DNA from: Eledone cirrhosa
Lineage: Eukaryota
Direction: 5' to 3'
DNA: 64,000 bases
NCBI GenBank assembly: GCA_964016885.1
Contig: OZ024746.1
Location: 95,666,001 to 95,730,000 of the forward strand
Position numbers and translations under genes: made by a program. The notes beneath the pieces are model-generated. The model was not told the origin of the DNA. It searched no databases and saw nothing but the letters and a program-made list of their open reading frames with translations. Positions 30,307 through 64,000 of this stretch are shown here, piece by piece (positions within the stretch are counted from its first letter, which is position 1; each line of letters opens with the position of its first letter).

Positions 30307-30369
30307 ATTTATATATGTACGTATATATATATATATATATACAAGCCATTAATACATATCTTTATATAG

Positions 30370-30407
30370 CTCTTACACGTGTTTCACCCAATAGGGCTCA
30401 TCGGAGA
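30370..30407 (-). ncRNA. Minimal hammerhead motif with a core mutation (CCGAUGA)
   Basis: Minus strand UCU-CCGAUGA-GCCCuauuGGGU-GAAA-CACGU-GUA-AGA; mirror copy of 30611-30648. Confidence 0.6.
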
Positions 30408-30610
30408 CAGATATTAAAAGCAAAGTTTTTAATTACAGACCCTAAGAGGGTAAAATAATAGTTTTACATCGCCATGCATAGTAATTTTAAATGTTAAAGG
30501 TATAAACACGGTGAAAGGAGTATACATTTAAAATTACTATGCATGGCGATGTAAAACTATTATTTTACCCTCTTAGGGTCTGTAATTAAAAACTTTACTT
30601 TTAATATCTG

Positions 30611-30648
30611 CCTCTGATGAGCCCTATTGGGTGAAACACGTGTAAGAG
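30611..30648 (+). ncRNA. Minimal type-I hammerhead ribozyme (Penelope-type, palindromic stem III)
   Basis: CCU-CUGAUGA-GCCCuauuGGGU-GAAA-CACGU-GUA-AGAG. Intact core, 4-bp stem II, self-complementary ACACGUGU, GUA triplet (cut after 30644). Stem I is only 2-3 bp. Confidence 0.75.
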
Positions 30649-31119
30649 TTATATAAAGATTGTTTTAACGGCTTGTAACTCTTTCATTAATTCTTTTGCT
30701 TATTACAGCTCTGCTTAACCTTTACACTAACTATTAACTTTCTCTAATATTTAACCCTGATAACCCAAGCATTGAGCACTTACGCATCCGCTTTTGGCAT
30801 GTAATATTCTGTATCACACCTCTTTATACCTCTTCTTTTTATCCTCTTTTACGATACTGTAACCTATTATATATATATGATGGTTGCAAACTTTGCTAAG
30901 AGTCTTGCAATTGCTTGGAGGATTATAGAGTTTGGTGCACTTTTAGGCTATGGCCAGCCACACAAACCTGTAACATATCCTGAACAGGCAATGCCTGTGC
31001 TTTGAAGGTTTTTTAAGTGGGGAAAGGCCTTGCACTCGACCAATCCCACTCTCTGAGCATTGTAAACACTACCCGAAAAGGATACATACATACATAAATA
31101 CACACATACATATGTATTT

Positions 31120-31234: not shown

Positions 31235-31661
31235 ACCAAAACATTAACAGAGATTAAGAAAGTTGACGTCATTATAAATGTTCCGATAACTCTGATAATA
31301 CATTTCTATAACTCAATTTGGATAAGAAACAAATAGTCTCCACTGTGACATAAGCAGGGGGGTAAGTGATTCAGTGGATCTCAGAGAACTTATTGGTCTC
31401 CTTTTCCTCTTTGCCATTAAGGAATAATTCTCTAATGTAGATGGTGGTCTGTACCATGATGATGGTCTTTTGACTGTCACCATGTCCCAACCCCAAGCTC
31501 TAGATAAGATTATGAAGAAATTTATTGTTTTCTATAAAGGCTTCAAAGTTTCAATAAAAGAAAATGCAAACCTATCGGTGGTGCCATTCTTGAATGTGAC
31601 CCTAGATCTGTTTAATCGCTTATTTTGTTTATACAGAAAGCCCAATGAAACTTTGAATTGA
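31235..31661 (+). mobile_element. Penelope-like element reverse transcriptase remnant
   Basis: ...VDVIINV..TLI..FYNSIWIRNK...GVSDSVDLRELIGLLFL..IKE*FSNVDGGLYHDDGLL...PQALDKIMKKFI...VVPFLNVTLDLFN....YRKPNE matches PLE RT motifs (GSYDGAExCELVG, GLYRDDGL, FLDVTLDL, YRKPN). Confidence 0.8.
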
Positions 31662-36209: not shown

Positions 36210-36499
36210 CTACGATTATGATGATGATAATAATGATGACTATGATGATGATGATGATGATTGTTTTCATGGCACCACATATACAAATGTTAATATTGTG
36301 ATTATTAAAAATATAAAAAAAAAAAAATCTTTAAATATTTATCTGTCATGTCAGTGATATTTCCCTTTTTTTTCTCAGGGCTTATTTAACCCTTTAAAGG
36401 GGTCATAATTGTTAGGGAGCAGGTGGTGTGGGTGAGGTGGGGGTTTCTGACAGATGAAAGAAGTTATTCTTTCAGAAGATGTATTATTTTATTACTTAC

Positions 36500-36870
36500 A
36501 TCACACACATATATACATACACATACATACACACATAAACATTCACATATACAATCATACACATACACTCACACACACATACATATTTGTATAGATAAAC
36601 ACATGCACACATGTACGCACATACATACACACATATATATACACACGTGCACACACATTCATATTTGTATAGACACACGTACACACACATATACACACAT
36701 ACACACACACATATATGTACATACACACATGTGCACACATACAAGCATGTACACATATACATATGCGCACAAAAACACACACATTCACACATGCACTCAC
36801 ATAAACACACACACACACATGCTCTCATACGTATGCACATGTGCACACACACACACACATCTGTATTCAC
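36500..36870. repeat. Degenerate (CA/TA)n tract
   Basis: Direct reading. Confidence 0.9.
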
Positions 36871-36876
36871 ATGCTT

Positions 36877-38920
36877 GTGATGGTGGTGGTGGTGGTGGTG
36901 GTGGTGGTGATGGTGGTGGTGGTGGTGGTGGTGATGGTGGTGGTGGTGGTGGTGGTGGTGGTGGTGGTGGTGATGGTGGTGGTGGTGGTGGTGGTGGTGG
37001 TGGTGATGGTGGTGGTGATGGTGGTGGTGATGGTGGTGGTGGTGGTGATGGTGATGGTGGTGGTGGTGGTGGTGATGGTGGTGGTGGTGGTGATGGTGGT
37101 GGTGGTGGTGGTGGTGGTGATGGTGGTGGTGGTGGTGATGGTGGTGGTGGTGGTGGTGGTGGTGGTGGTGATGGTGGTGGTGGTGGTGGTGGTGGTGGTG
37201 GTGATGGTGGTGGTGGTGGTGGTGGTGGTGATGGTGGTGGTGGTGGTGGTGGTGATGGTGATGGTGGTGGTGGTGGTGGTGGTGGTGATGGTGGTGGTGG
37301 TGGTGGTGGTGATGGTGGTGGTGGTGGTGGTGGTGGTGGTGGTGGTGATGGTGGTGGTGGTGGTGATGGTGGTGATGGTGGTGGTGGTGGTGGTGATGGT
37401 GGTGGTGGTGGTGGTGGTGGTGATGGTGGTGGTGGTGGTGGTGGTGGTGGTGGTGGTGGTGGTGGTGGTGATGGTGGTGGTGGTGGTGATGGTGGTGATG
37501 GTGGTGATGGTGGTGGTGGTGGTGGTGATGGTGGTGGTGGTGGTGGTGGTGGTGGTGATGGTGGTGGTGGTGGTGGTGGTGATGGTGGTGGTGGTGGTGG
37601 TGGTGATGGTGGTGGTGGTGATGGTGGTGGTGGTGGTGGTGGTGATGGTGGTGGTGGTGGTGGTGATGGTGGTGGTGGTGGTGGTGGTGATGGTGGTGGT
37701 GGTGGTGGTGGTGGTGGTGGTGATGGTGGTGGTGGTGGTGGTGGTGGTGATGGTGGTGGTGGTGGTGGTGGTGGTGGTGGTGGCGGTGGTGATGGTGGTG
37801 GTGGTGGTGATGGTGGTGATGGTGGTGATGGTGGTGGTGGTGGTGGTGATGGTGGTGGTGGTGGTGATGGTGGTGGTGGTGGTGGTGGTGGTGGTGGTGG
37901 TGGTGATGGTGGTGGTGGTGGTGGTGGTGATGGTGGTGGTGGTGGTGATGGTGGTGGTGGTGATGGTGGTGGTGGTGGTGGTGGTGATGGTGGTGGTGGT
38001 GGTGGTGGTGATGGTGGTGGTGGTGGTGGTGATGGTGGTGGTGGTGGTGGTGGTGGTGGTGATGGTGGTGGTGGTGGTGGTAGTGGTGATGGTGATGGTG
38101 GTGGTGGTGGTGGTGGTGGTGATGGTGGTGGTTGTGGTGGTGGTGATGGTGGTGGTGGTGGTGGTGGTGGTGATGGTGGTGGTGGTGGTGGTGGTGGTGA
38201 TGGTGGTGGTGGTGGTGGTGATGGTGGTGGTGGTGGTGGTGGTGGTGATGGTGGTGGTGGTGGTGGTGGTGGTGGTGGTGGTGGTGGTGGTGGTGATGGT
38301 GGTGGTGGTGGTGATGGTGGTGATGGTGGTGATGGTGGTGGTGGTGGTGGTGATGGTGGTGGTGGTGGTGATGGTGGTGGTGGTGGTGGTGGTGGTGGTG
38401 GTGGTGGTGATGGTGGTGGTGGTGGTGGTGGTGATGGTGGTGGTGGTGGTGGTGATGGTGGTGGTGGTGGTGGTGGTGATGGTGGTGGTGGTGATGGTGG
38501 TGGTGGTGGTGGTGGTGATGGTGGTGGTGGTGGTGGTGGTGGTGATGGTGGTGGTGGTGGTGGTGGTGATGGTGGTGGTTGTGGTGGTGGTGATGGTGGT
38601 TGTGGTGGTGGTGGTGGTGGTGGTGGTGGTGATGGTGGTGGTGGTGGTGGTGGTGATGGTGGTGGTGGTGGTGGTGGTGATGGTGGTGGTGGTGGTGGTG
38701 GTGGTGGTGATGGTGGTGGTTGTGGTGGTGGTGATGGTGGTGGTGGTGGTGGTGGTGGTGATGGTGGTGGTGGTGCTGGTGGTGATGGTGGTGGTGGTGG
38801 TGATGGTAGTGGTAGTGGCAGTGGCAGTGATGGTGATGGTGGTGGTGGTGGTGATGGTAGTGGTAGTGGTGATGGTGATGGTAGTAGTGGCAGTGGTGGT
38901 GGTGGTGGTAATGGTGAGGA
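36877..38920. repeat. ~2-kb (GGT)n microsatellite with GAT interruptions
   Basis: Direct reading; produces the poly-Gly, poly-Pro and poly-Val ORFs. Confidence 0.97.
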
Positions 38921-39322
38921 TAATGGGAGGTTTGGGCAGCAGTAATGGTTGGACATTTGCTTAAATTCTTATAAACCGGGTGGGGTGGGGGGTGGGGGTC
39001 AGTAAGTGTATGTTCGTAAATATGGGATTTTTTTGTAATGTTCTTTTTTTTGTCATATATAATGTTTTTTTAATGTAGATTCTGCAGCTGCTGTATCAAT
39101 ATAAATCACTTACAATAAAATTTTGCTGGAGACAGATTAGCAAAATTTAATAAGCTGGGGGGTCCCCGGGGGGGGGGGGGGTGTCGGAAAATATCTGAAA
39201 ATTTAATAAACAGGGGGAGGGCGTGTCGAGTATTCAAGACCTGAGAATATTTACCTTTTAAACATATGTCAATTTATCCTATATGTGTTAGTCATGGAGA
39301 TGGGTCAGAGTCCCTTTGTCTC

Positions 39323-39538
39323 TTAACCCTTTCGCATTTAAACCAGCCATATCCAGTCACAATTCTCTCACCTCTTTCTATTCAAACCAATAGTAACTGG
39401 CTGTTCATACTTATCTTAAGGTATTGTTCTCAAAATAAATAATATCAAAACCTCGTAGATTCCATATTATGTGAGGTAAAGCCTTTTCTGTGAAAATACA
39501 GTAGTAAATATAGAGTAATCTAAATGCTAAAGAGTTAA
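39323..39538. mobile_element. TTAA MITE family 1 (216 bp including both TTAA)
   Basis: TTAACCCTTTCGCATTTAAAC...TAAATGCTAAAGAGTTAA. Confidence 0.85.
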
Positions 39539-39635
39539 CAGGTAAATTTCATTCAAATCCCACCATGCCGTCTTAGGAAGATAATGACATCATGTTGGCA
39601 TGGGTTTGATGGATTGTCCTGGTCTTGGACTAGAT

Positions 39636-40828
39636 CATCATCATCATCAGGTCGAGCTTGCTCGGCTTTCTACGACACGCTTCCTCCATCCATCTCTGTC
39701 TCTCCTAGCGTTTGCCAGTTCTTTCGCAGTGCATCCAGTATCGTCCTCAAGTTGCTTGACGTATGTCTTCTTGGGACGACCAGCGTTTCTTGCTCCATGA
39801 GATGGACTCCATAACAACACATCACCTGCTATTTCCTCCTTGCGCCAACAGTGGCCAGCAAATCTGAGTCTCTGTCCACGTATTGCTGATAGGTGGTATA
39901 TTGCCATAGAGATCCTCATTTGTTGGGTGTTCCCTCCAAGACACGTTTAAAGCAGTGCGGAGCATACGTGTGTATGCCCCGTCTAGTTTTTTCTCCAGTT
40001 TCGACGTTAGCGTCCAAGTGATAGAGCCATAAACAAGCACAGATTCCACAGCAGCTCTGAAGAAATTCCTTTTCAGTTTGGCCGGCAGGTTTGATTTCCA
40101 TATCTTTTCCATTGCATTCAATGCTCCCCAGGCTTTTCCCAGTCTGATGTTAACATCATGTTCTGTGGAGGCGATATAGCTACCCAGGTATTTGAAGTCG
40201 TCAACTTGCTTGATTATAATCGCCGTTTAGACTTCGCATACCAACTGAGGAGTCTTGGTTCAGGCAAATATATTCTGTTTTGCCTGCGTTGACATAGAGT
40301 CCGATTTCCTTTGCAACTGATTCAATGCTGTGAAGTAGTGATGTTGCATCCTTAAGGTAGTCAGCGAGGACCGCTAAATCATCCGCATAGTCAGCATCGG
40401 TGATTTTCTGAGCTGCATGGCGTCTACACTTTCGCTTTGTGAGAGTGAAACCAAGCTCTAAGTTTTCGTTCAGGGCTTTTCTCAATACATAGTCGAGGCA
40501 GATGATAAAAATATATGGTGCAAGAGTATCCCCTTGGAGTACTCCTGCAATGATGTCAAAGAAGTTGGTATCTCCATCAGGTGAGCGCACCATTGCGCGG
40601 GTGTTTTTATAGAACATCATGATGGCATTTACTGTTTCCTTTGGCAAGCCATAGGCTAGAAGTATCTCTCTCATCCTCCCATGATGGATGGAATCGAATG
40701 TTTTTGAAAAGTCAATAAACATGAGAGTTGCTGGGAGGTTTTTGGCTTTTATGCCTTCCAAGATACGCCGAATAGTAAGTATTTGCCCTGATGTTGATCT
40801 GTTGGTGCGGAAGCCATTTTTTTTTTTT
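39636..40828 (-). mobile_element. Young 5'-truncated RTE LINE (family R3): RT domain plus C-terminus, few frameshifts, TSD-flanked
   Basis: NGFRTNRSTSGQILTIRRILEG...FIDFSKTFDSI...GVLQGDTLAPYIFIICLDYVLR...DYADDL...KTEY...FKYLGS...RLRFAGHCWR...GRP...DRDGWR; (TGA)n tail; TSD TTGGACTAGAT at 39625-39635 and 40829-40839; inserted into an older family-A SINE. Confidence 0.95.
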
Positions 40829-41187
40829 TTGGACTAGATGGTTTAGTGAACCACATCTTGCTTATACATTCCAGTTTGTCATCGTTTCTACAGCTGAATG
40901 CTGTTCCCAATGCCAACCACTTTACTGAGTATATTGGGTGCATTTTACCATGACCCCAGCACCACCATGTTACAGAGTGTAGTGCACTAAGCCTAAATTC
41001 GAGGTGATGGTCACTACTAGAATGCCTTTGATCATAGGTCTCCTTAATCATGGCTGATCCTGATAAAGGAAATACTGAAGGGGAAACATTCCTCACTTTT
41101 TTTAGTTGCCTCCTTCCCAACTTTAATCTTTGTTTGCCTCTGTTTCTTAAAAACCCATGTCAGGCATCTCTGGCTGACCTAGGGCTA

Positions 41188-41345
41188 CACAACAACAGCA
41201 GCAACAGTAACATCAACAGCAGCAGCAACAACAACAGAAATAACAACAATGACAGCAACAACAACAGCAGCAAAAGCAGCAACAACAACTATGACAACAA
41301 CAGCAACAACAGTAAAGGCAGCAGCAACAACAACAGCAACAACAT
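41188..41345. repeat. (CAA/CAG)n microsatellite
   Basis: Direct reading. Confidence 0.9.
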
Positions 41346-41515
41346 GTTTGTCATTAATTAACAATTTGTTAAAAATACCTTAGTTTCTCATGATCACCTG
41401 GTTGTAAGAATTGACACCTGTCACTTGATATTTCATATTCCAGCATGGGAGAAAAAAAAAATGAATAACCCCAACAAAACTCAGTTTTTACCTTCAGCAG
41501 CAGACTTAACTATAG

Positions 41516-42089
41516 TTAACCCTTTAGTATTTAAACCAGCTGTATCCAGCTAGAAACCTCTCACCTCTATCAGTTCAAACTGGCTGTAACTGGCCACTCA
41601 TACTGATGTTAAGGTATTGTTTTCAAAATAAATATGAAAATATGATAGATTCGATATTATGTGAGATAAAGCTTTTACCTTTAACCCTTTAGCATTTACA
41701 TTACTCTATATTTACTATTATACTTTAACCCTTTAGCATTTAAACTCGATGTATCTGGCCAGAATTCTCTCACCTATTTCTGTTCAAACCGGCCATAAGG
41801 CATCGCTCATACTGATGTTAAGGTATTGTTCTCAAAATAAATATCAAAATCTTGTAGATTCGATATTATGTGAGATAATTATGTGAAATAAAGTGTTTAA
41901 CATGAAAATACAATAGTAAATATAGAGTAATGTAAATGCTAAAAGGTTAACCCTTTAGCATTTAAACCAGCCATATCCAGACAAAATAAATAATAACAAA
42001 ATCTCATAGATGTAATATTATGTGAGATAAAGCCATTACTGATAAAATACAGTAGTAAATATAGAGTGATATAAATGCTAAAGGGTTAA
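41516..42089. mobile_element. Cluster of four tandem or nested TTAA MITE family-1 pieces
   Basis: TTAACCCTTTAG starts at ~41516, 41681, 41725 and 41947; the last two share one TTAA; the cluster ends AAAGGGTTAA at 42089. Confidence 0.85.
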
Positions 42090-43034
42090 GCAGCAGCCTT
42101 ACTATAGTTAAAGGAAATCTTGGAGTAGGATTAAATCTTAATGTCCTTTACCACGTAAAACCACATTAACAAGACATTCTTGTAAAGCAAAAAAAAAAAA
42201 AAAAAAAAAATGCTTTCTGATTTAGGCACAAGGCCAGCAATTTGGGGGAGGGGAAAGTTGATTAAATCGACCCCAGAGCGTGACTGGTACTTTATTTTAT
42301 CGACCACGTAAGAATGAAAAGCAAAGTTAACCTCGGTGGCATTTGAACTCAGAACATAAAGGTCTGTAGCTCTATGCTGCAAAACATATTGTCTGACGCT
42401 CTACCAATTCTGCCAATCCACCACCCTTGTAAAGCAAAAGTAATGCTATAGCTGCATCATATAAAACTTTAATACTGCAAATTTTCTCAGTAGATATCAT
42501 CATCATCATCATCATCATCACCGTTTTACATCCGTTCTTCCACGCTAGCATGGGTTAGACGGGTTGTCCTGTTGTGGGCAGTGTCCGGTCGGCTGACCAT
42601 GCCTTGCTCATATGGGAACTGATTCTGGTTTGATTTCTACAGCTGGATGCCCTTCCTAACACCAACCTCATTTACAGTGAGTGCTGGGTGATTTTTTTCG
42701 GTGGCGCCTACATGTCCACTTTACAGTGTGGACTGGGTGCTTTTATGCTGTGGCACCTCCACGACCACTTTGCAGTGGGAGGGTGAGGGGGCATATTGTC
42801 TATACTTCAGCTTCAGCTTGTACCGGTGGGGGAAGGGGGAGGGTCTTCTGGATTAACAAAGCTATTTTTAGATATTTTCTGCTAAATCATTACAGAATAT
42901 AAAGACTTAATATCCTGTACCACATGAAACCACATTAGCAAATCATTCTTGTAAATTACAAAATACGTAATTAAAGATTTTCTACAAGAATCTTTATGTT
43001 CCAAAAACCAACTTAATAACGAGAAAGTTAGTTA

Positions 43035-44927
43035 TACATACAAACACATACATTACATACAAACACATACATTACATACAGACACATATATTACATACAT
43101 TACATACATTACATACATTACATACAGACACATACATTACATACAAACACATACATTACATACAAACACATACATTACATACAAACACATACATTACATA
43201 CAAACACATACATTACATACATTACATACATTACATACATTACATACAAACACATACATTACATACAAACACATACATTACATACATTACATACAAACAC
43301 ATACATTACATACAGACACATACATTACATACAAGCACATACATTACATATAAACACATGCATTACATACAAACACATACATTACATACAAACACATACA
43401 TTACATACATTACATACATTACATACAAACACATACATTACATACAAACACATACATTACATACAGACACATACATTACATACAAACACATACATTACAT
43501 ACAAACACATACATTACATACAGACACATACATTACATACAAACACATACATTACATACAAACACATACATTGCATACAAACACATACATTACATACAAA
43601 CACATACATTACATACAAACACATACATTACATACAAACACATACATTACATACAGACACATACATTACATACAAACACATACATTACATACAGACACAT
43701 ACATTACATACAAACACATACATTACATACAAACACATACATTGCATACAAACACATACATTACATACAAACACATACATTACATACAAACACATACATT
43801 ACATACAGACACATACATTACATACAAACACATACATTACATACAAACACATACATTACATACAAACACATACATTACATACAGACACATACATTACATA
43901 CAAACACATACATTACATACAAACACATACATTACATACAAACACATACATTACATACAAACACATACATTACATACAAACACATACATTACATACATTA
44001 CATACATTACATACAAACACATACATTACATACAAACACATACATTACATACAGACACATACATTACATACAAACACATACATTACATACAAACACATAC
44101 ATTACATACAAACACATACATTACATACAGACACATACATTACATACAAACACATACATTACATACAAACACATACATTACATACAAACACATACATTAC
44201 ATACAAACACATACATTACATACAAACACATACATTACATTCAGACACATACATTACATACATACATACACATACATACACATACATTACATACAAACAC
44301 ATACATTACATACAAACACATACATTACATACAAACACATACATTACATACAAACACATACATTACATACAAACACATACATTACATACAGACACATACA
44401 TTACATACAAACACATACATTACATACAAACACATACATTACATACAAACACATACATTACATACAGACACATACATTACATACAAACACATACATTACA
44501 TACAAACACATACATTACATACAAACACATACATTACATACATTACATACATTACATACAAACACATACATTACATACAAACACATACATTACATACATT
44601 ACATACAAACACATACATTACATACAAACACATACATTACATACAGACACATACATTACATACAAACACATACATTACATACATTACATACAAACACATA
44701 CATTACATACAAACACATACATTACATACAAACACATACATTACATACAGACACATACATTACATACAAACACATACATTACATACAGACACATACATTA
44801 CATACAAACACATACATTACATACAGACACATACATTACATACAAACGTATACATTACATACAAACACATACATTACATACATTACATACAAACACATAC
44901 ATTACATACGAACACATACATTACATA
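43035..44927. repeat. 19-bp minisatellite (ACATACAAACACATACATT, with 9-bp subunit), ~100 copies
   Basis: Period 19 (43041, 43060). Confidence 0.97.
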
Positions 44928-44959
44928 TAAGTAAATAAATAAATAAATGTTGATGTTAT

Positions 44960-47900
44960 CTCCCTTTCACTCACTGCCTCCTTCTCTCTCACTCTCCCCA
45001 TCTCTCTCTTTCACTCACTGCCTCCTTCTCTCTCACTCTCCCCATCTCTCCCTTTCACTTACTACCTCTGTCTCTCTCACTCTCCCCATCTCTCTCTTTC
45101 ACTCACTGCCTCTGTCTCTCTCACTCTCCCCATCTCTCTCTTTCACTCACTGCCTCTGTCTCTCTCACTCTCCCTATCTCTCTCTTTCACTCACTGCCTC
45201 TGTCTCTCTCACTCTCCTCATCACCCTCTTTCACTCACTGCCTCTGTCTCTCTCACTCTCCCTATCTCTCTCTTTCACTCACTGCCTCTGTCTCTCTCTC
45301 TCACTCTACCCATCTCTCTCTTTCACTCACTGCCTCTGTCTCTCTCTCTCACTCTACCCATCTCTCTCTTTCACTAACTGCCTCCTTCTCTCTCACTCTC
45401 CCCATCTCTCCCTTTCACTTACTACCTCTGTCTCTCTCACTCTCCCCATCTCTCTCTTTTACTCACTGCCTCTGTCTCTCTCACTCTCCTCATCACCCTC
45501 TTTCACTCACTGCCTCTGTCTCTCTCACTCTCCCCATCTCTCTTTCACTCACTGCCTCTGTCTCTCTCTCACTCTACCCATCTCTCTCTTTCACTCACTC
45601 TCTCCATCTCTCCCACTCTCCCCATCTCTCTCTTTCACTAACTACCTCTGTCTCTCTCACTCTCCCCATCTCTCTCTTTCACTCACCACCTCTGTCTCTC
45701 TCACTCTCCCCCATCTCTCTCTTTCACTCACCACCTCTGTCTCTCTCACTCTCCCCATCTCTCTCTTTCACTCACCACCTCTGTCTCTCTCACTCTCCCC
45801 ATCTCTCTCTTTCACTCACCACCTCTGTCTCTCTCCCTCTCCCCATCTCTCTCTTTCACTCACCACCTCTGTCTCTCTCCCTCTCCCCATCTCACTCTTT
45901 CACTCACCACCTCTGTCTCTCTCACTCTCCCCATCTCTCTCTTTCACTCACCACCTCTGTCTCTCTCCCTCTCCCCATCTCTCTCTTTCACTCACCACCT
46001 CTGTCTCTCTCACTCTCCCCATCTCTCTCTTTTACTCACTGCCTCTGTCTCTCTCACTCTCCTCATCACCCTCTTTCACTCACTGCCTCTGTCTCTCTCA
46101 CTCTCCCCATCTCTCTTTCACTCACTGCCTCTGTCTCTCTCTCACTCTACCCATCTCTCTCTTTCACTCACTCTCTCCATCTCTCCCACTCTCCCCATCT
46201 CTCTCTTTCACTAACTACCTCTGTCTCTCTCACTCTCCCCATCTCTCTCTTTCACTCACCACCTCTGTCTCTCTCACTCTCCCCCATCTCTCTCTTTCAC
46301 TCACCACCTCTGTCTCTCTCACTCTCCCCATCTCTCTCTTTCACTCACCACCTCTGTCTCTCTCACTCTCCCCATCTCTCTCTTTCACTCACCACCTCTG
46401 TCTCTCTCCCTCTCCCCATCTCTCTCTTTCACTCACCACCTCTGTCTCTCTCCCTCTCCCCATCTCACTCTTTCACTCACCACCTCTGTCTCTCTCACTC
46501 TCCCCATCTCTCTCTTTCACTCACCACCTCTGTCTCTCTCCCTCTCCCCATCTCTCTCTTTCACTCACCACCTCTGTCTCTCTCACTCTCCCCCATCTCT
46601 CTCTTTCACTCACCACCTCTGTCTCTCTCACTCTCCCCATCTCTCTCTTTCACTCACCACCTCTGTCTCTCTCACTCTCCCCATCTCTCTCTTTCACTCA
46701 CCACCTCTGTCTCTCTCCCTCTCCCCATCTCTCTCTTTCACTCACCACCTCTGTCTCTCTCCCTCTCCCCATCTCTCTCTTTCACTCACCACCTCTGTCT
46801 CTCTCCCTCTCCCCATCTCTCTCTTTCACTCACCACCTCTGTCTCTCTCACTCTCCCCATCTCTCTCTTTCACTCACCACCTCTGTCTCTCTCACTCTCC
46901 CCATCTCTCTCTTTCACTCACCACCTCTGTCTCTCTCCCTCTCCCCATCTCTCTCTTTCACTCACCACCTCTGTCTCTCTCCCTCTCCCCATCTCTCTCT
47001 TTCACTCACCACCTCTGTCTCTCTCCCTCTCCCCATCTCTCTCTTTCACTCACCACCTCTGTCTCTCTCCCTCTCCCCATCTCTCTCTTTCACTCACCAC
47101 CTCTGTCTCTCTCCCTCTCCCCATCTCTCTCTTTCACTCACCACCTCTGTCTCTCTCACTCTCCCCATCTCTCTCTTTCACTCACCACCTCTGTCTCTCT
47201 CCCTCTCCCCATCTCTCTCTTTCACTCACCACCTCTGTCTCTCTCCCTCTCCCCATCTCTCTCTTTCACTCACCACCTCTGTCTCTCTCACTCTCCCCAT
47301 CTCTCTCTTTCACTCACCACCTCTGTCTCTCTCCCTCTCCCCATCTCTCTCTTTCACTCACCACCTCTGTCTCTCTCCCTCTCCCCATCTCTCTCTTTCA
47401 CTCACCACCTCTGTCTCTCTCCCTCTCCCCATCTCTCTCTTTCACTCACCACCTCTGTCTCTCTCCCTCTCCCCATCTCTCTCTTTCACTCACCACCTCT
47501 GTCTCTCTCCCTCTCCCCATCTCTCTCTTTCACTCACCACCTCTGTCTCTCTCCCTCTCCCCATCTCTCTCTTTCACTCACCACCTCTGTCTCTCTCCCT
47601 CTCCCCATCTCTCTCTTTCACTCACCACCTCTGTCTCTCTCACTCTCCCCATCTCTCTCTTTCACTCACCACCTCTGTCTCTCTCCCTCTCCCCATCTCT
47701 CTCTTTCACTCACCACCTCTGTCTCTCTCCCTCTCCCCATCTCTCTCTTTCACTCACCACCTCTGTCTCTCTCACTCTCCCCATCTCTCTCTTTCACTCA
47801 CCACCTCTGTCTCTCTCACTCTCCCCATCTCTCTCTTTCACTCACCACCTCTGTCTCTCTCCCTCTCCCCATCTCTCTCTTTCACTCACCACCTCTGTCT

Positions 47901-50900
47901 CTCTCACTCTCCCCATCTCTCTCTTTCACTCACCACCTCTGTCTCTCTCCCTCTCCCCATCTCTCTCTTTCACTCACCACCTCTGTCTCTCTCCCTCTCC
48001 CCATCTCTCTCTTTCACTCACCACCTCTGTCTCTCTCACTCTCCCCATCTCTCTCTTTCACTCACCACCTCTGTCTCTCTCCCTCTCCCCATCTCTCTCT
48101 TTCACTCACCACCTCTGTCTCTCTCACTCTCCCCCATCTCTCTCTTTCACTCACCACCTCTGTCTCTCTCACTCTCCCCATCTCTCTCTTTCACTCACCA
48201 CCTCTGTCTCTCTCCCTCTCCCCATCTCTCTCTTTCACTCACTGCTTCTGTCTCTCTCCCTCTCCCCATCTCTCTCTTTCACTCACCACCTCTGTCTCTC
48301 TCACTCTCCCCATCTCTCTCTTTCACTCACCACCTCTGTCTCTCTCCCTCTCCCCATCTCTCTCTTTCACTCACCACCTCTGTCTCTCTCACTCTCCCCA
48401 TCTCTCTCTTTCACTCACCACCTCTGTCTCTCTCCCTCTCCCCATCTCTCTCTTTCACTCACCACCTCTGTCTCTCTCCCTCTCCCCATCTCTCTCTTTC
48501 ACTCACCACCTCTGTCTCTCTCACTCTCCCCATCTCTCTCTTTCACTCACCACCTCTGTCTCTCTCCCTCTCCCCATCTCTCTCTTTCACTCACCACCTC
48601 TGTCTCTCTCACTCTCCCCCATCTCTCTCTTTCACTCACCACCTCTGTCTCTCTCACTCTCCCCATCTCTCTCTTTCACTCACCACCTCTGTCTCTCTCC
48701 CTCTCCCCATCTCTCTCTTTCACTCACTGCTTCTGTCTCTCTCCCTCTCCCCATCTCTCTCTTTCACTCACCACCTCTGTCTCTCTCACTCTCCCCCATC
48801 TCTCTCTTTCACTCACCACCTCTGTCTCTCTCCCTCTCCCCATCTCTCTCTTTCACTCACTGCTTCTGTCTCTCTCCCTCTCCCCATCTCTCTCTTTCAC
48901 TCACCACCTCTGTCTCTCTCACTCTCCCCATCTCTCTCTTTCACTCACCACCTCTGTCTCTCTCCCTCTCCCCATCTCTCTCTTTCACTCACTGCTTCTG
49001 TCTCTCTCCCTCTCCCCATCTCTCTCTTTCACTCACCACCTCTGTCTCTCTCCCTCTCCCCATCTCTCTCTTTCACTCACTGCTTCTGTCTCTCTCCCTC
49101 TCCCCATCTCTCTCTTTCACTCACCACCTCTGTCTCTCTCCCTCTCCCCATCTCTCTCTTTCACTCACTGCTTCTGTCTCTCTCACTCTCCCCATCTCTC
49201 TCTTTCACTCACCACCTCTGTCTCTCTCCCTCTCCCCATCTCTCTCTTTCACTCACCACCTCTGTCTCTCTCACTCTCCCCCATCTCTCTCTTTCACTCA
49301 CCACCTCTGTCTCTCTCACTCTCCCCCATCTCTCTCTTTCACTCACCACCTCTGTCTCTCTCACTCTCCCCCATCTCTCTCTTTCACTCACCACCTCTGT
49401 CTCTCTCACTCTCCCCCATCTCTCTCTTTCACTCACCACCTCTGTCTCTCTCACTCTCCCCCATCTCTCTCTTTCACTCACCACCTCTGTCTCTCTCACT
49501 CTCCCCATCTCTCTCTTTCACTCACTGCTTCTGTCTCTCTCCCTCTCCCCATCTCTCTCTTTCACTCACCACCTCTGTCTCTCTCCCTCTCCCCATCTCT
49601 CTCTTTCACTCACTGCTTCTGTCTCTCTCACTCTCCCCATCTCTCTCTTTCACTCACTGCTTCTGTCTCTCTCCCTCTCCCCATCTCTCTCTTTCACTCA
49701 CCACCTCTGTCTCTCTCACTCTCCCCATCTCTCTCTTTCACTCACCACCTCTGTCTCTCTCACTCTCCCCCATCTCTCTCTTTCACTCACCACCTCTGTC
49801 TCTCTCACTCTCCCCCATCTCTCTCTTTCACTCACCACCTCTGTCTCTCTCACTCTCCCCCATCTCTCTCTTTCACTCACCACCTCTGTCTCTCTCACTC
49901 TCCCCCATCTCTCTCTTTCACTCACCACCTCTGTCTCTCTCACTCTCCCCCATCTCTCTCTTTCACTCACCACCTCTGTCTCTCTCACTCTCCCCCATCT
50001 CTCTCTTTCACTCACCACCTCTGTCTCTCTCACTCTCCCCCATCTCTCTCTTTCACTCACCACCTCTGTCTCTCTCACTCTCCCCCATCTCTCTCTTTCA
50101 CTCACCACCTCTGTCTCTCTCACTCTCCCCCATCTCTCTCTTTCACTCACCACCTCTGTCTCTCTCTTTCACTCACCACCTCTGTCTCTCTCCCTCTCCC
50201 CATCTCTCTCTTTCACTCACTGCTTCTGTCTCTCTCACTCTCCCCATCTCTCTCTTTCACTCACTGCTTCTGTCTCTCTCCCTCTCCCCATCTCTCTCTT
50301 TCACTCACCACCTCTGTCTCTCTCCCTCTCCCCATCTCTCTCTTTCACTCACTGCTTCTGTCTCTCTCACTCTCCCCATCTCTCTCTTTCACTCACTGCT
50401 TCTGTCTCTCTCCCTCTCCCCATCTCTCTCTTTCACTCACCACCTCTGTCTCTCTCACTCTCCCCATCTCTCTCTTTCACTCACTGCTTCTGTCTCTCTC
50501 CCTCTCCCCATCTCTCTCTTTCACTCACCACCTCTGTCTCTCTCCCTCTCCCCATCTCTCTCTTTCACTCACTGCTTCTGTCTCTCTCACTCTCCCCATC
50601 TCTCTCTTTCACTCACTGCTTCTGTCTCTCTCCCTCTCCCCATCTCTCTCTTTCACTCACCACCTCTGTCTCTCTCCCTCTCCCCATCTCTCTCTTTCAC
50701 TCACTGCTTCTGTCTCTCTCACTCTCCCCATCTCTCTCTTTCACTCACTGCTTCTGTCTCTCTCCCTCTCCCCATCTCTCTCTTTCACTCACCACCTCTG
50801 TCTCTCTCCCTCTCCCCATCTCTCTCTTTCACTCACTGCTTCTGTCTCTCTCACTCTCCCCCATCTCTCTCTTTCACTCACCACCTCTGTCTCTCTCACT

Positions 50901-51003
50901 CTCCCCCATCTCTCTCTTTCACTCACCACCTCTGTCTCTCTCACTCTCCCCCATCTCTCTCTTTCACTCACCACCTCTGTCTCTCTCACTCTCCCCATCT
51001 CTC
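44960..51003. repeat. 44/45-bp polypyrimidine minisatellite, ~135 copies (~6 kb)
   Basis: CTCTCTCTTTCACTCACCACCTCTGTCTCTCTCMCTCTCCCCAT; produces the spurious 2029-aa ORF. Confidence 0.97.
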
Positions 51004-51019
51004 ACTATTATAAGCAAAT

Positions 51020-54000
51020 GGGAGTCCATGTGTTGACCACCCATGGCCCCGGTGGACAGAATAGAGAAGGTGTTTCCCCAGAGGATGGTGAGGGAGATGC
51101 GTTGGAAGGACCATTTCAGCTCGTGAGGTTCACACCTGTGGTAGCCAACTCCGTTCCGATGGGGGTGAGTAGGGAGGTGGTCCTAGGGCCAAGGACACCA
51201 GAAGTCTCACTGCTACGGGGTGCCGATGGTGGTGAGTAGGGAGGTGGTCCTAGGGCCAAGGACACCAGAAGTCTCACTGCTACGGGGTGCCGATGGTGGT
51301 GAGTAGGGAGGTGGTCCTAGGGCCAAGGACACCAGAAGTCTCACTGCTACGGGGTGTTGATGGTGGTGAGTAGGGAGGTGGTCCTAGGGCCAAGGACACC
51401 AGAAGTCTCACTGCTACGGGGTGCCAATGGTGGTGAGTAGGGAGGTGGTCCTAGGGCCAAGGACACCAGAAGTCTCACTGCTACGGGGTGCCAATGGTGG
51501 TGAGTAGGGAGGTGGTCCTAGGGCCAAGGACACCAGAAGTCTCACTGCTACAGGGTGCTGATGGTGGTGAGTAGGGAGGTGGTCCTAGGGCCAAGGACAC
51601 CAGAAGTCTCACTGCTACGGGGTGCCGATGGTGGTGAGTAGGGAGGTGGTCCTAGGGCCAAGGACACCAGAAGTCTCCCCTGCTACGGGGTGCTGATGGT
51701 GGTGAGTAGGGAGGTGGTCCTAGAGCCAAGGACACCAGAAGTCTCCACTGCTACGGGGTGCTGATGGTGGTGAGTAGGGAGGTGGTCCTAGGGCCAAGGA
51801 CACCAGAAGTCTCACTGCTACGGGGTGCTGATGGTGGTGAGTAGGGAGGTGGTCCTAGGGCCAAGGACACCAGAAGTCTCACTGCTACGGGGTGCCAATG
51901 GTGGTGAGTAGGGAGGTGGTCCTAGGGCCAAGGACACCAGAAGTCTCACTGCTACGGGGTGCCAATGGTGGTGAGTAGGGAGGTGGTCCTAGGGCCAAGG
52001 ACACCAGAAGTCTCACTGCTACGGGGTGCCAATGGTGGTGAGTAGGGAGGTGGTCCTAGGGCCAAGGACACCAGAAGTCTCACTGCTACGGGGTGCCAAT
52101 GGTGGTGAGTAGGGAGGTGGTCCTAGGGCCAAGGACACCAGAAGTCTCACTGCTACAGGGTGCTGATGGTGGTGAGTAGGGAGGTGGTCCTAGGGCCAAG
52201 GACACCAGAAGTCTCACTGCTACGGGGTGCCGATGGTGGTGAGTAGGGAGGTGGTCCTAGGGCCAAGGACACCAGAAGTCTCACTGCTACGGGGTGCCGA
52301 TGGTGGTGAGTAGGGAGGTGGTCCTAGGGCCAAGGACACCAGAAGTCTCACTGCTACGGGGTGCCGATGGTGGTGAGTAGGGAGGTGGTCCTAGGGCCAA
52401 GGACACCAGAAGTCTCACTGCTACAGGGTGCTGATGGTGGTGAGTAGGGAGGTGGTCCTAGGGCCAAGGACACCAGAAGTCTCACTGCTACGGGGTGCCA
52501 ATGGTGGTGAGTAGGGAGGTGGTCCTAGGGCCAAGGACACCAGAAGTCTCACTGCTACGGGGTGCCAATGGTGGTGAGTAGGGAGGTGGTCCTAGGGCCA
52601 AGGACACCAGAAGTCTCACTGCTACAGGGTGCTGATGGTGGTAAGTAGGGAGGTGGTCCTAGGGCCAAGGACACCAGAAGTCTCCACTGCTACGGGGTGC
52701 CAATGGTGGTGAGTAGGGAGGTGGTCCTAGAGCCAAGGACACCAGAAGTCTCACTGCTACAGGGTGCTGATGGTGGTGAGTAGGGAGGTGGTCCTAGGGC
52801 CAAGGACACCAGAAGTCTCCACTGCTACGGGGTGCCAATGGTGGTGAGTAGGGAGGTGGTCCTAGGGCCAAGGACACCAGAAGTCTCCTCTGCTATGGGG
52901 TGCTGTTGGTGGTGAGTAGGGAGGTGGTCCTAGGGCCAAGGACACCAGAAGTCTCCACTGCTACGGGGTACCAATGGTGGTGAGTAGGGAGGTGGTCCTA
53001 GGGCCAAGGACACCAGAAGTCTCCACTGCTACGGGGTACCAATGGTGGTGAGTAGGGAGGTGGTCCTAGGGCCAAGGACACCAGAAGTCTCCACTGCTAC
53101 AGGGTGCTGATGGTGGTGAGTAGGGAAGTGGTACTAGGGCCAAGAATACTAGAAGTCTCCACTGCTACGGGGTGCTGATGGTGGTGAGTAGGGAGGTGGT
53201 CCTAGGGCCAAGGACACCAGAAGTCTCACTGCTACGGGGTGCCAATGGTGGTGAGTAGGGAGGTGGTCCTAGGGCCAAGGACACCAGAAGTCTCACTGCT
53301 ACGGGGTGCCAATGGTGGTGAGTAGGGAGGTGGTCCTAGGGCCAAGGACACCAGAAGTCTCACTGCTACAGGGTGCTGATGGTGGTGAGTAGGGAGGTGG
53401 TCCTAGGGCCAAGGACACCAGAAGTCTCCACTGCTACGGGGTGCCAATGGTGGTGAGTAGGGAGGTGGTCCTAGAGCCAAGGACACCAGAAGTCTCACTG
53501 CTACAGGGTGCTGATGGTGGTGAGTAGGGAGGTGGTCCTAGGGCCAAGGACACCAGAAGTCTCCACTGCTACGGGGTGCCAATGGTGGTGAGTAGGGAGG
53601 TGGTCCTAGAGCCAAGGACACCAGAAGTCTCACTGCTACAGGGTGCTGATGGTGGTGAGTAGGGAGGTGGTCCTAGGGCCAAGGACACCAGAAGTCTCCA
53701 CTGCTACGGGGTGCCAATGGTGGTGAGTAGGGAGGTGGTCCTAGAGCCAAGGACACCAGAAGTCTCACTGCTACAGGGTGCTGATGGTGGTGAGTAGGGA
53801 GGTGGTCCTAGGGCCAAGGACACCAGAAGTCTCCACTGCTACGGGGTGCCAATGGTGGTGAGTAGGGAGGTGGTCCTAGAGCCAAGGACACCAGAAGTCT
53901 CACTGCTACAGGGTGCTGATGGTGGTGAGTAGGGAGGTGGTCCTAGGGCCAAGGACACCAGAAGTCTCCACTGCTACGGGGTGCCAATGGTGGTGAGTAG

Positions 54001-58702: not shown

Positions 58703-58866
58703 ATTTAGTGTAACTCCGTATAGTATAGTTTCAAAATAACTTATTTCCACATGTTATAATAGGTGGCAAGTTGGCAGTCATTAGAATAGCTTCCCAATAT
58801 TTGATTTGGCTTTCTACACTCTGATTTCAAATTCCTCTATGGTTAACTTTCATCATTTTGAGATCA

Positions 58867-59592
58867 GTAAACTCTCCAAATATTAGTCGCTCTCTGATAG
58901 GTTTGCGGCCAAGCCCTTAGCAGTGGAGACTTCTGGTGTCCTTGGCCCTAGGACCATCTCCCTACTCACCCCCATCAGCACCCCATAGCAGTGGAGACTT
59001 CTGGTGTCCTTGGCCCTAGGACCACCTCCCTACTCACCCCCATCAGCACCCCATAGCAGTGGAGACTTCTGGTGTCCTTGGCCCTAGGACCACCTCCCTA
59101 CTCACCACCATCAGCACCCCGTAGCAGTGGAGACTTCTGGTGTCCTTGGCCCTAGGACCACCTCCCTACTCACCACCATCAGCACCCATAGCAGTGGAGA
59201 CTTCTGGTGTCCTTGACCCTAGGACCACCTCCCTACTCACCCCCATCACCACCCCTTAGCAGTGGAGACTTCTGGTGTCCTTGGCCCTAGGACCACCTCC
59301 CTACTCACCCCCATCAGCACCCATTAGCAGTGGAGACTTCTGGTGTCCTTGGCCCTAGGACCACCTCCCTACTCACCCCCATCAGCACCCCTTAGCAGTG
59401 GAGACTTCTGGTGTCCTTGGCCCTAGGACCACCTCCCTACTCACCACCATTGGCACAGAGTTGGCTACCCGCAGGTGTGAGCCTCGTGAGCTGGAATGGC
59501 TCTTCCAATGAATCACCCTCACCGTCCTCCAGGAAAACACCTTCTCTATTCTGTCCACCGGAGCTGCAGGGTTGTCAGCACTTGGGCCCCCA
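58867..59592 (+). mobile_element. CRE-like retrotransposon 3' end with a 68-bp array (8 units)
   Basis: KLSKY*SLSDRFAAKPLAVETSGVLGPRT.. [array 58920-59450] ..TTIGTELATRRCEPRELEWLFQ*ITLTVLQENTFSILSTGA; ends in (TA)n. Confidence 0.85.
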
Positions 59593-59721: not shown

Positions 59722-60186
59722 TATACATATATATACATATATATATTTCAAAACATATCAAATGTTTGATTTTTGTGCTTCTCAATAAAAAAGCTCAATA
59801 GATTTTGTACAGAGCTATAATAATTCAAAGTAAAACATATATGTATATATATATAGAGAGAGAAAGGATATATGGTCTTTTCTCTCTCTCTATATATACA
59901 ATATATCTTTTACTTTTGAAATATATATATATATTAAAAGTCGATTGACATATATATAAAAAGACATATCAAGCATTGACAGGGGATAATTTGTAAAGAG
60001 TGTAAGAACACATAGTTACAGAGGTATAATATTAAAATTTTTAACGAAAACTTCATATATATATATCATCATCATCATCATCATCGTTTAACGTCCATCT
60101 TCCACGCTAGCATGGGTTAGACGGTTTTGTTTCCTTTGATGCGGGAATGGTCGGGAGACCATGTCTTGCTCACATATATATATATG

Positions 60187-60280
60187 AAATAATTAAGTCA
60201 AATATGTAAAATTTGGCTTCGTTTATTATAAATTATATATTTAAATGAAGCCAAATTTTACATATTTGACTTAATTATTT
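60187..60280. repeat. Inverted repeat, 39-bp arms, 16-nt spacer
   Basis: AAATAATTAAGTCAAATATGTAAAATTTGGCTTCGTTTA versus TAAATGAAGCCAAATTTTACATATTTGACTTAATTATTT (one G-T). Confidence 0.9.
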
Positions 60281-60421
60281 TACATTACTCCGGAGTAAAC
60301 AAACCAACCTACGTACTTCGTCGAGTGCTCCAATCTGCATACTGAGGTGTCGGTAAACAACCAACATATACTCAATATATATATAATATAAGATCAAAAG
60401 ATGGTTAAAAGAGTTCCATGT

Positions 60422-60490
60422 ATTTTATTATGCGCATTTCAAAAACAAATATCATCATGGGATGATATTTGCGTTCTCATCAGATAAAAT
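60422..60490 (-). ncRNA. Type-I hammerhead ribozyme with long stem II and palindromic stem III
   Basis: Minus strand AUUUUAU-CUGAUGA-GAACGCAAAUAUCAUC-ccau-GAUGAUAUUUGUUUUU-GAAA-UGCGC-AUA-AUAAAAU. Perfect 7-bp stem I, ~15-bp stem II, self-complementary AUGCGCAU, AUA triplet; predicted cut between 60429 and 60428. Confidence 0.85.
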
Positions 60491-60553
60491 AGGGAGACAT
60501 GATATGAAGCTTAAAAAACACTTGCGAGCAGTGAAGTGTTAAATCAACATATC

Positions 60554-60615
<62 letters not shown>

Positions 60616-63419: not shown

Positions 63420-64000
63420 TTGACCATTCCATGAGATTGACCACTATATCAGATTGACTACTATATCATCCCACACAACACTGTGCCATTGTATTGACCA
63501 CTATCTCAGTGATTGCTACACCATCACACTGACCACTATACCATTACACCATCACACTGACCACTACACTATCTCAGTGATTGCTACACCATCACACTGA
63601 CCACTATACCATTACACCACCAAACTGACCACTACACTATCCCATTGATTGCTACACCATCACACTGACCACTACACTATCTCAGTGATTGCTACACCAT
63701 CACACTGACCACTATACCATTACACCATCACACTGATCACTACACTATCTCAGTGATTGCTACACCATCACACTGACCACTATACCATTACACCATCACA
63801 CTGACCACTACACTATCCCATTGATTGCTACACCATCACACTGACCACTGCATGACTACACTGACTACTACACTATCACACTGTCCCCTCTGCTATCACA
63901 TGGATAACGCCACCATCAGTGACCACTGCACCATTATACTGACCACTACATCATCACACTGACTGCTACATTATCACACTGACCACTAAGCTATCACCAT
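63420..64000. repeat. Minisatellite of alternating 28- and 40-bp units sharing CCATCACACTGACCACTA
   Basis: CCATCACACTGACCACTATACCATTACA alternates with CCATCACACTGACCACTACACTATCTCAGTGATTGCTACA from ~63521; degenerate flanks; runs off the window end. Confidence 0.85.

Follow-up and report, generated by a model that had tools for sequence, protein, structure and literature searches.

The hammerhead ribozyme motif near the right end of the window, the whole stretch of 64,000 nucleotides of Eledone cirrhosa DNA analyzed here, is very probably the pseudo-LTR (pLTR) hammerhead of a Hydra-clade Penelope-like element (PLE), present as a 178-bp 5'-truncated copy that likely arose by target-primed reverse transcription into a (TA)n tract. 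As judged from sequence, the pLTR hammerhead is of a known kind and its host is a new family of Hydra-clade PLEs. PLE hammerheads, as well as Hydra-clade PLEs in an octopus, have already been published.

Structure of the window hammerhead

A descriptor scan placed a type I hammerhead on the minus strand (60491-60421), combining a CUGANGA and GAAA core with an NUH cleavage site. The core and topology described in an earlier note on this DNA, with CUGAUGA, GAAA, a palindromic stem III, and an AUA site, were all located, and the predicted cut agreed with the one given there. Stem I is perfectly paired as that note had stated, but its length is 8 bp rather than 7 bp (60491-60484 with 60428-60421). 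Similarly, the 15 pairs claimed for stem II are present, but they are spread over 16 positions that include one C.U mismatch. The motif and its surroundings comprise the following features:

60421..60491, minus strand: type I hammerhead motif with an 8-bp stem I, CUGAUGA, a long stem II, GAAA, a palindromic stem III, and an AUA site
60484..60491, minus strand: 5' strand of stem I in the descriptor, pairing with 60428-60421
60477..60483, minus strand: CUGAUGA core
60441..60476, minus strand: stem II, 36 nt, with 15 pairs in 16 positions
Within stem II, minus strand: 3 bp, the C.U mismatch 60473/60444, 12 further bp, and a 4-nt loop at 60460-60457
60440-60437, minus strand: GAAA core
60437-60430, minus strand: self-complementary stem III octamer AUGCGCAU; GAAA and the octamer together span 60430..60440
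60431-60429, minus strand: AUA triplet, with the predicted cut at 60429/60428
60421..60428, minus strand: 3' strand of stem I, with the U of position 1.7 at 60422
60378..60555, minus strand: 5'-truncated 3' end (pLTR) of a Hydra-clade PLE, 93-98% identical to pLTRs in the loci L075, L079, and L085
60557..60612, no strand assigned: (TA)n tract on the truncated 5' side, the likely insertion target
60181..60377, no strand assigned: abutting remnant of a different PLE family, made up of two inverted arms, the left one short and the right one tailed, and lacking its own hammerhead through truncation

The hammerhead motif is real, and self-cleavage at its AUA site is a prediction. In stem II, G.U pairs occur at 10.1-11.1 and at position 5, and the C.U mismatch occupies position 4. 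The R10.1-Y11.1 pair is thus a G.U wobble in the window motif, and it is A-U, G-C, or G.U in 11 of 12 representative hammerheads. Weak 10.1-11.1 pairs can be active in hammerheads (PMC3088659). The octamer AUGCGCAU gave -10.5 kcal/mol as a self-duplex and +4.7 kcal/mol as an isolated hairpin, and closing stem III in the monomer costs 3.5 kcal/mol (-10.3 vs -13.8). Because the monomer stem III has only 2 bp, the ribozyme would be weak by itself; as predicted, it would cut RNA weakly, likely in pairs or with the help of protein. To call it "best-formed" was therefore an overstatement, considering G10.1.U11.1, the AUA triplet, and the 2-bp monomer stem III.

The host element

Since the pLTRs of pLTR-ORF-pLTR units match it at 93-98%, the module in the window is a 5'-truncated 3' end of such a unit. 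Its 3' terminus is of the "short" type, some +45-51 nt past the cut, and the tail of ~85 nt is absent. The module was common to the first 30 copies, which were selected by a match to the 5' half of the hammerhead, with 5' ends ranging from a few bases to ~1.5 kb, and the longer copies extended upstream into GIY-YIG and RT coding sequence. The earlier observation that the module contains no ORF is correct locally, but the window copy is 5'-truncated and full elements are coding. Accordingly, the proposal of a small non-coding retroelement failed at this locus, where the module is the pLTR of a protein-coding PLE of 3.7-3.9 kb.

Full units measured 3.67-3.92 kb and contained a single RT and GIY-YIG ORF, the ATG of which is 212 nt downstream of the predicted cut. 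The locus L034 displays an inverted 5' pLTR, a 713-aa RT-EN frame, and a 3' UTR of ~1 kb, followed by a window-type hammerhead in sense. In a protein search, an 821-codon open frame was found in 26 of the 150 matches scored among 20,034 candidates. Of 20 regions around such matches, three (L067-L069) included three hammerheads in head-to-tail orientation, spaced by 3,893-3,918 bp and separated by ORFs, and because the units sit head-to-tail, every unit boundary has a hammerhead. The seven array ORFs compared were mutually 96.8-100% identical. The subfamily that bears these arrays is a young sister with 85-88% identity to the window module. A pLTR-ORF-pLTR of the window's own subfamily was found in L075, with a broken frame and 83% protein identity to the ORF product P0001, and the window subfamily is older than its array-bearing sister.

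P0001 spans 800 aa from the ATG and includes YRDD and YECKV...TYFGST, the single RT and GIY-YIG ORF of an EN+ PLE. Other properties of EN+ PLEs were also observed, namely pLTRs from partial tandems, inverted 5'-truncated copies, and an optional tail. The 13 database homologues of the ORF were 32-42% identical to it. In Pfam, no family was returned for the 713-aa RT-EN frame of L034, and two of the three frames tested were blank. The only named homologue, the Argonauta "GATA zinc finger domain-containing protein 14-like" (P0007), shares 37% identity with the PLE ORF across 70% of its length; it is probably a mis-named Hydra PLE.

Placement in the Hydra clade

The placement in the Hydra clade is suggested by motifs and comparison by eye rather than by a tree. 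Traits described for this clade include a C-terminal EN, DKT, a CxCx5C linker, the lack of CCHH, and (TA)n targets (PMC8557442). In P0001, the EN is C-terminal, an N-terminal CxC is absent, and GxKF/Y is not conserved (by eye). The RWK position reads RRLRWT or RRLRWI, with RW kept and K changed, while DKG is replaced by DKT (SDKTNNLY), as in Hydra-1_Obim. The linker is CxCx5C (CNCRIKNKC), CCHH is absent, and CxxC and CxH surround E and N (CNLCLNEK...INRR...CLH). The (TA)n preference was also apparent, as 3' ends enter TA tracts in nearly all copies shown. The size of 3.67-3.92 kb departs from the tendency of Hydra elements to be "generally <3 kb", which is not diagnostic. Naiad membership was rejected on the C-terminal EN and the lack of CxC, and Neptune and Nematis were rejected on the lack of CCHH and the presence of the CxCx5C linker.

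Like Hydra-1_Obim and Penelope-13_HM among the Hydra-clade PLEs, the element has a single ORF of RT and C-terminal GIY-YIG, and a type I hammerhead with a palindromic stem III near its 3' end (PMC8557442). The G10.1.U11.1 pair is also found in Penelope-13_HM and Penelope-17_HM (PMC8557442). In contrast, the first 44 residues agree with Hydra-1_Obim at ~18 positions (by eye), and the two ribozymes have different sequences, indicating another family. Unlike the Hydra elements described, this one has a unit of 3.7-3.9 kb, a 3' UTR of ~1 kb, and an Asn-rich insert before the EN. Its cleavage site is AUA, in contrast to the GUH of each of the 26 Hydra rows in File S2 (PMC8557442), and its 15-bp stem II, in which the C at position 4 is unpaired, compares with 3-7 bp in the same file (PMC8557442). 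The pLTR location, palindromic helix III, and predicted dimers are shared with the minimal hammerheads of metazoan PLEs (PMC4209133), which occur mostly as solo copies from truncated PLEs and in some cases as inverted pairs 100-700 bp apart or tandems ~3 kb apart (PMC4209133).

Copy ends and the reverse transcription template

Of the 30 copies picked on the 5' half, 21 had short 3' ends (+43-51 nt past the cut) and nine had long ones (+121-136); none of these copies, selected on the 5' half only, ended at the cut. Another 30 copies, picked on the downstream flank and thereby blind to ends at the cut, included 14 short ends, 15 long ends, and one at +53. Each of the 10 divergent pairs found within 5.2 kb combined a short arm with a long one. 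Nor were 5' truncations at the cut in excess, with 79 matches vs 102 at a control position ~22 nt downstream, in a crude comparison where the pattern lengths were unequal and only AT-rich junctions were scored. With 0/30 ends at the cut and no excess of truncations, neither end of the copies records cleavage.

A published parallel is PAc, a Poseidon PLE of Anolis, which shares the tandem units, AT-rich targets, and two discrete 3' ends that are located downstream of the hammerhead and define an optional tail (PMC11167929). PAc initiates internally at two sites, its template in vitro is uncut, and its hammerhead cuts only with protein (PMC11167929). Unlike PAc, the element belongs to a different clade, its tail is ~85 nt instead of 30-40 nt, and its hammerhead is 212 nt upstream of the ATG, which the PAc hammerhead overlaps (PMC11167929). 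At the scale of the genome, the two fixed ends at about +45-51 and +134 nt past the cut, the single tailed arm per inverted pair, and the lack of a cut footprint support the view that a second PLE clade also begins reverse transcription internally on RNA that has not been cleaved. Such uncut RNA is the likely template, but a circular RNA of unit length, if primed internally, would leave the same ends.

Circular RNA is the basis of a reading that we consider rather unlikely, and which departs from the preferred one in mechanism alone: the ribozyme would cut efficiently in vivo, ligated circles of unit length would serve as templates, and internal priming would generate copies that exceed one unit and span the junction. 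The core and helices are under strong selection in families whose proteins share only 35-60% identity, as would be expected under such a model, which has been proposed for metazoan PLEs (PMC4209133), and the head-to-tail arrays would also fit it. However, copies that start at the cut, as expected from linear cut RNA, are not in excess, and in PAc, core mutants left insertion unaffected and no reads ended at the site (PMC11167929).

Under the preferred reading of an uncut template, a read-through RNA from tandem units would be the starting transcript. The EN would nick a (TA)n target, followed by reverse transcription by the element's protein, which, by analogy with PAc, would start internally at about +45 and +130 past the cut on uncut RNA, with frequent early termination or inversion. 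The ribozyme would cut only when two copies pair via the palindrome, or when assisted by the element's protein, and such cutting would separate the units of multimeric transcripts or free a 5' end ahead of the ORF. Pairing in cis would demand that hammerheads 3.9 kb apart meet, and AU-only palindromes self-pair at just -2 to -3 kcal/mol. The lone truncated copy in the window is likely a passive relic.

Conservation of the fold and a stem II signature

The fold was compared among 12 representatives, hand-picked from distinct but related families. Paired helix cells numbered 166 of 168, against 132.4 +/- 3.3 (sd) with shuffled partners, a level reached in 0 of 20,000 shuffles by a statistic that ignores kinship. 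Two-sided changes were seen in stems I, II, and III, the three helices of a hammerhead with an open stem I. Every one of the 12 had a self-complementary stem III, as expected under the dimer model (PMC4209133). The earlier note had named a single copy, together with no covariation and no cleavage, as the outcome that would count against it; thousands of genome matches and the paired cells above were found, and its expectations of a PLE or retrozyme hammerhead architecture, of abundance, and of covariation were borne out.

Position 4 of stem II was unpaired in every representative, and its 5' side was always C (C.C in nine, C.U in two, and C.A in one). A census without the stem II condition yielded 114 distinct sequences in 21 clusters, of which 20 had AUA. 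Among the AUA clusters, 18 of 20 displayed 3 bp, an unpaired C, and a longer helix, a count that does not represent 18 independent events, since the census loci were enriched for the scaffold and a part of the clusters represents damaged versions of a single family; the two exceptions were single rearranged copies. The unpaired C was common to families with a wholly different stem I. Position 1.7 was U in 11 of the 12 representatives, and U1.7 forms a contact between stems I and II in other hammerheads (PMC11875169). Several sister families were linked to Hydra-type ORFs, and in L112 two hammerheads 3,676 bp apart surround an ORF at 44-60% identity. No description of the stem II signature was found in a search of the accessible hammerhead literature.

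We tentatively suggest, with more doubt than confidence, that the AUA-site hammerheads of the Hydra PLEs in this genome may form an undescribed structural sub-class, in which the unpaired C, the R-Y/Y-R/A-U helix, and the mostly conserved U1.7 would make a new contact between stems I and II or an RT docking site that switches cleavage on. If so, the ~36,000 copies and the near-identical intact arrays would be a ready system for the function of PLE hammerheads. The conserved stem II signature in itself offers a one-base test of what PLE ribozymes do.

It is also conceivable, though improbable in our view, that the fold no longer cuts and has been maintained to serve the RT as a signal for protein binding or packaging, with the unpaired C as its specificity mark. 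Such a role would be consistent with the sub-optimal R10.1.U11.1 and AUA, with an unpaired C that is invariant yet distant from the core, and with the family of the motif at 30611, which mostly has CCGAYGA instead of CUGAUGA (12/19 arms); moreover, Naiad PLEs thrive without canonical hammerheads (PMC8557442). In contrast, the catalytic positions were kept in 12/12 representatives, where N7 alone varies (the search required the core), and among the 30 copies picked on the downstream flank, all 26 that reach the 5' core read CUGAUGA.

Comparison with retrozymes

The element resembles non-LTR retrozymes in its type I hammerhead, low GC, and pLTR ancestry (PMC7229834; 10.64898/2026.07.22.740005). 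A reading of the window module as a small non-autonomous retrozyme, spreading via circular RNAs of ~170-400 nt, draws on its short TA-bounded extent, the absence of a local ORF, the type I hammerhead, a retrozyme-like family in the same window at 181-230, and the derivation of retrozymes from pLTRs (10.64898/2026.07.22.740005). This reading is very improbable and was largely refuted by the genomic copies. The 5' extent of these copies is anywhere between a few bases and >1.4 kb, reaching into RT/EN coding sequence, no regular short tandem arrays were found in 59 loci, and the actual repeat unit is 3.7-3.9 kb. Non-LTR retrozymes are non-coding tandem units of ~300 bp (PMC7229834; 10.64898/2026.07.22.740005), whereas the window family has a coding unit of 3.7-3.9 kb, and short non-coding tandem units with a hammerhead in each were not its organization. 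Within 1.5 kb, copies of the window family had inverted neighbors in 10/30 and 14/29 loci and same-strand neighbors in 3/30 and 1/29, so that this family is not a retrozyme. The tandem units of 150-400 bp that had been anticipated were not seen as a regular array in any of the 59 loci.

The family at 181-230 is a separate case. It occupies approximately 40-364 of the window on the minus strand (hammerhead at 230-181), is non-coding with a GUC site and TA flanks, and had 2,914 genome matches. Direct units 404-470 bp apart occurred in 7/32 loci and inverted partners in 12/32, eight of the 32 loci having been chosen for close pairs, and no linked ORF was found in the 32 loci. It looks like a PLE-mobilized non-LTR retrozyme and fits those described (PMC7229834; 10.64898/2026.07.22.740005). 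The interpretation as small non-coding retroelements thus survived only for this family, with its direct units of ~440 bp (404-470 bp), but not for the locus under study or for the motif at 30611.

Abundance in the genome and statistical support

The genome searched has a size of 3.0 Gb and is divided into 1,796 contigs. With at most one mismatch, a 23-nt pattern derived from the 5' half retrieved 3,368 matches of the window subfamily and none with the reversed control. The shared scaffold with a free stem II had 35,967 exact matches and its reversed pattern had 0, while a pattern from the downstream flank had 17,972. The presence of several hammerhead families in this genome, anticipated from the window alone, was substantiated by 3,368, 35,967, and 2,914 matches. 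The family was also present in contigs of four other organisms and in other sequence of the same species. In O. vulgaris, 31 recently active Penelope-like families have been annotated, and ribozymes and Hydra go unmentioned in the accessible part of that report (PMC13282606). Together, the ~36,000 scaffold matches and the young arrays at 99.6-100% identity represent a large Hydra-type expansion that was probably active recently.

Two type I motifs (60491-60421 and 230-181) were identified by the descriptor in the 64-kb window, and 100 local dinucleotide shuffles of the window gave an expectation per 64 kb of 0.11 motifs under loose settings and 0.01 under strict ones. The fold z-score of the window hammerhead was modest (-2.8), and no hammerhead was among the 64 matches of an Rfam scan at E<=5. 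Although the z-score and the Rfam result would suit a chance fold in AT-rich DNA, the probability of that reading is negligible, as it was refuted by the shuffle null with its 0.01 strict matches per window, by the reversed-pattern control (35,967 matches against 0), and by covariation.

Other elements in the window and the genome

The three hammerhead families of the window had been regarded as unrelated. Their helices are indeed unrelated, but the family at 30611, too, sits in elements with Hydra-type ORFs. In the window, the corresponding region (30360-30870) consists of two inverted pLTRs from another element, the ORF of which is of the Hydra type. The descriptor, which demanded a stem I of at least 4 bp, missed the motif at 30611. 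Pieces of an ORF that were 27-61% identical to P0001 were found for this family by tblastn, upstream in five and downstream in one of 14 other loci. Its core reads CCGAYGA (U4C) in 12/19 arms, and the plus arm in the window has CUGAUGA, which may be a secondary change, possibly due to CpG decay. Two patterns of the motif retrieved nothing beyond the arms in the window itself, since CCG is the reading in most relatives, whereas a DNA search did find the family.

The PLE family of the remnant at 60181-60377 had 1,665 genome matches of a 30-mer. In its full copies, the hammerhead has a CUGAAGA core, a stem I of 5 bp, and an AUA site, and its stem II contains the same unpaired C. At 31347-31655, the window contains a degenerate Hydra-type RT fragment with 31% identity to the family RT (E 3e-9) and no linked ribozyme. 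Long, strongly skewed tracts of low complexity or satellite sequence occupy approximately 36400-54000, as well as 58778-59591 and 63431-63997, and they include a repeat with a 68-bp period and one with a 20/28-bp period.

Elsewhere in the genome, other type I families with GUA or GUU sites were observed in ten loci (L001, L029, L106, L110, L111, L113, L159, L176, L177, and L179), where the stem II regions are 48-55 nt long and apparently branched. A PLE of another clade was found at L037:745-2998, with a KGLKF motif, a CxxxxCxxC linker, and a Pfam match to GIY-YIG. We take it to be Neptune-like by these motifs, and the same locus also includes a short GUA hammerhead.
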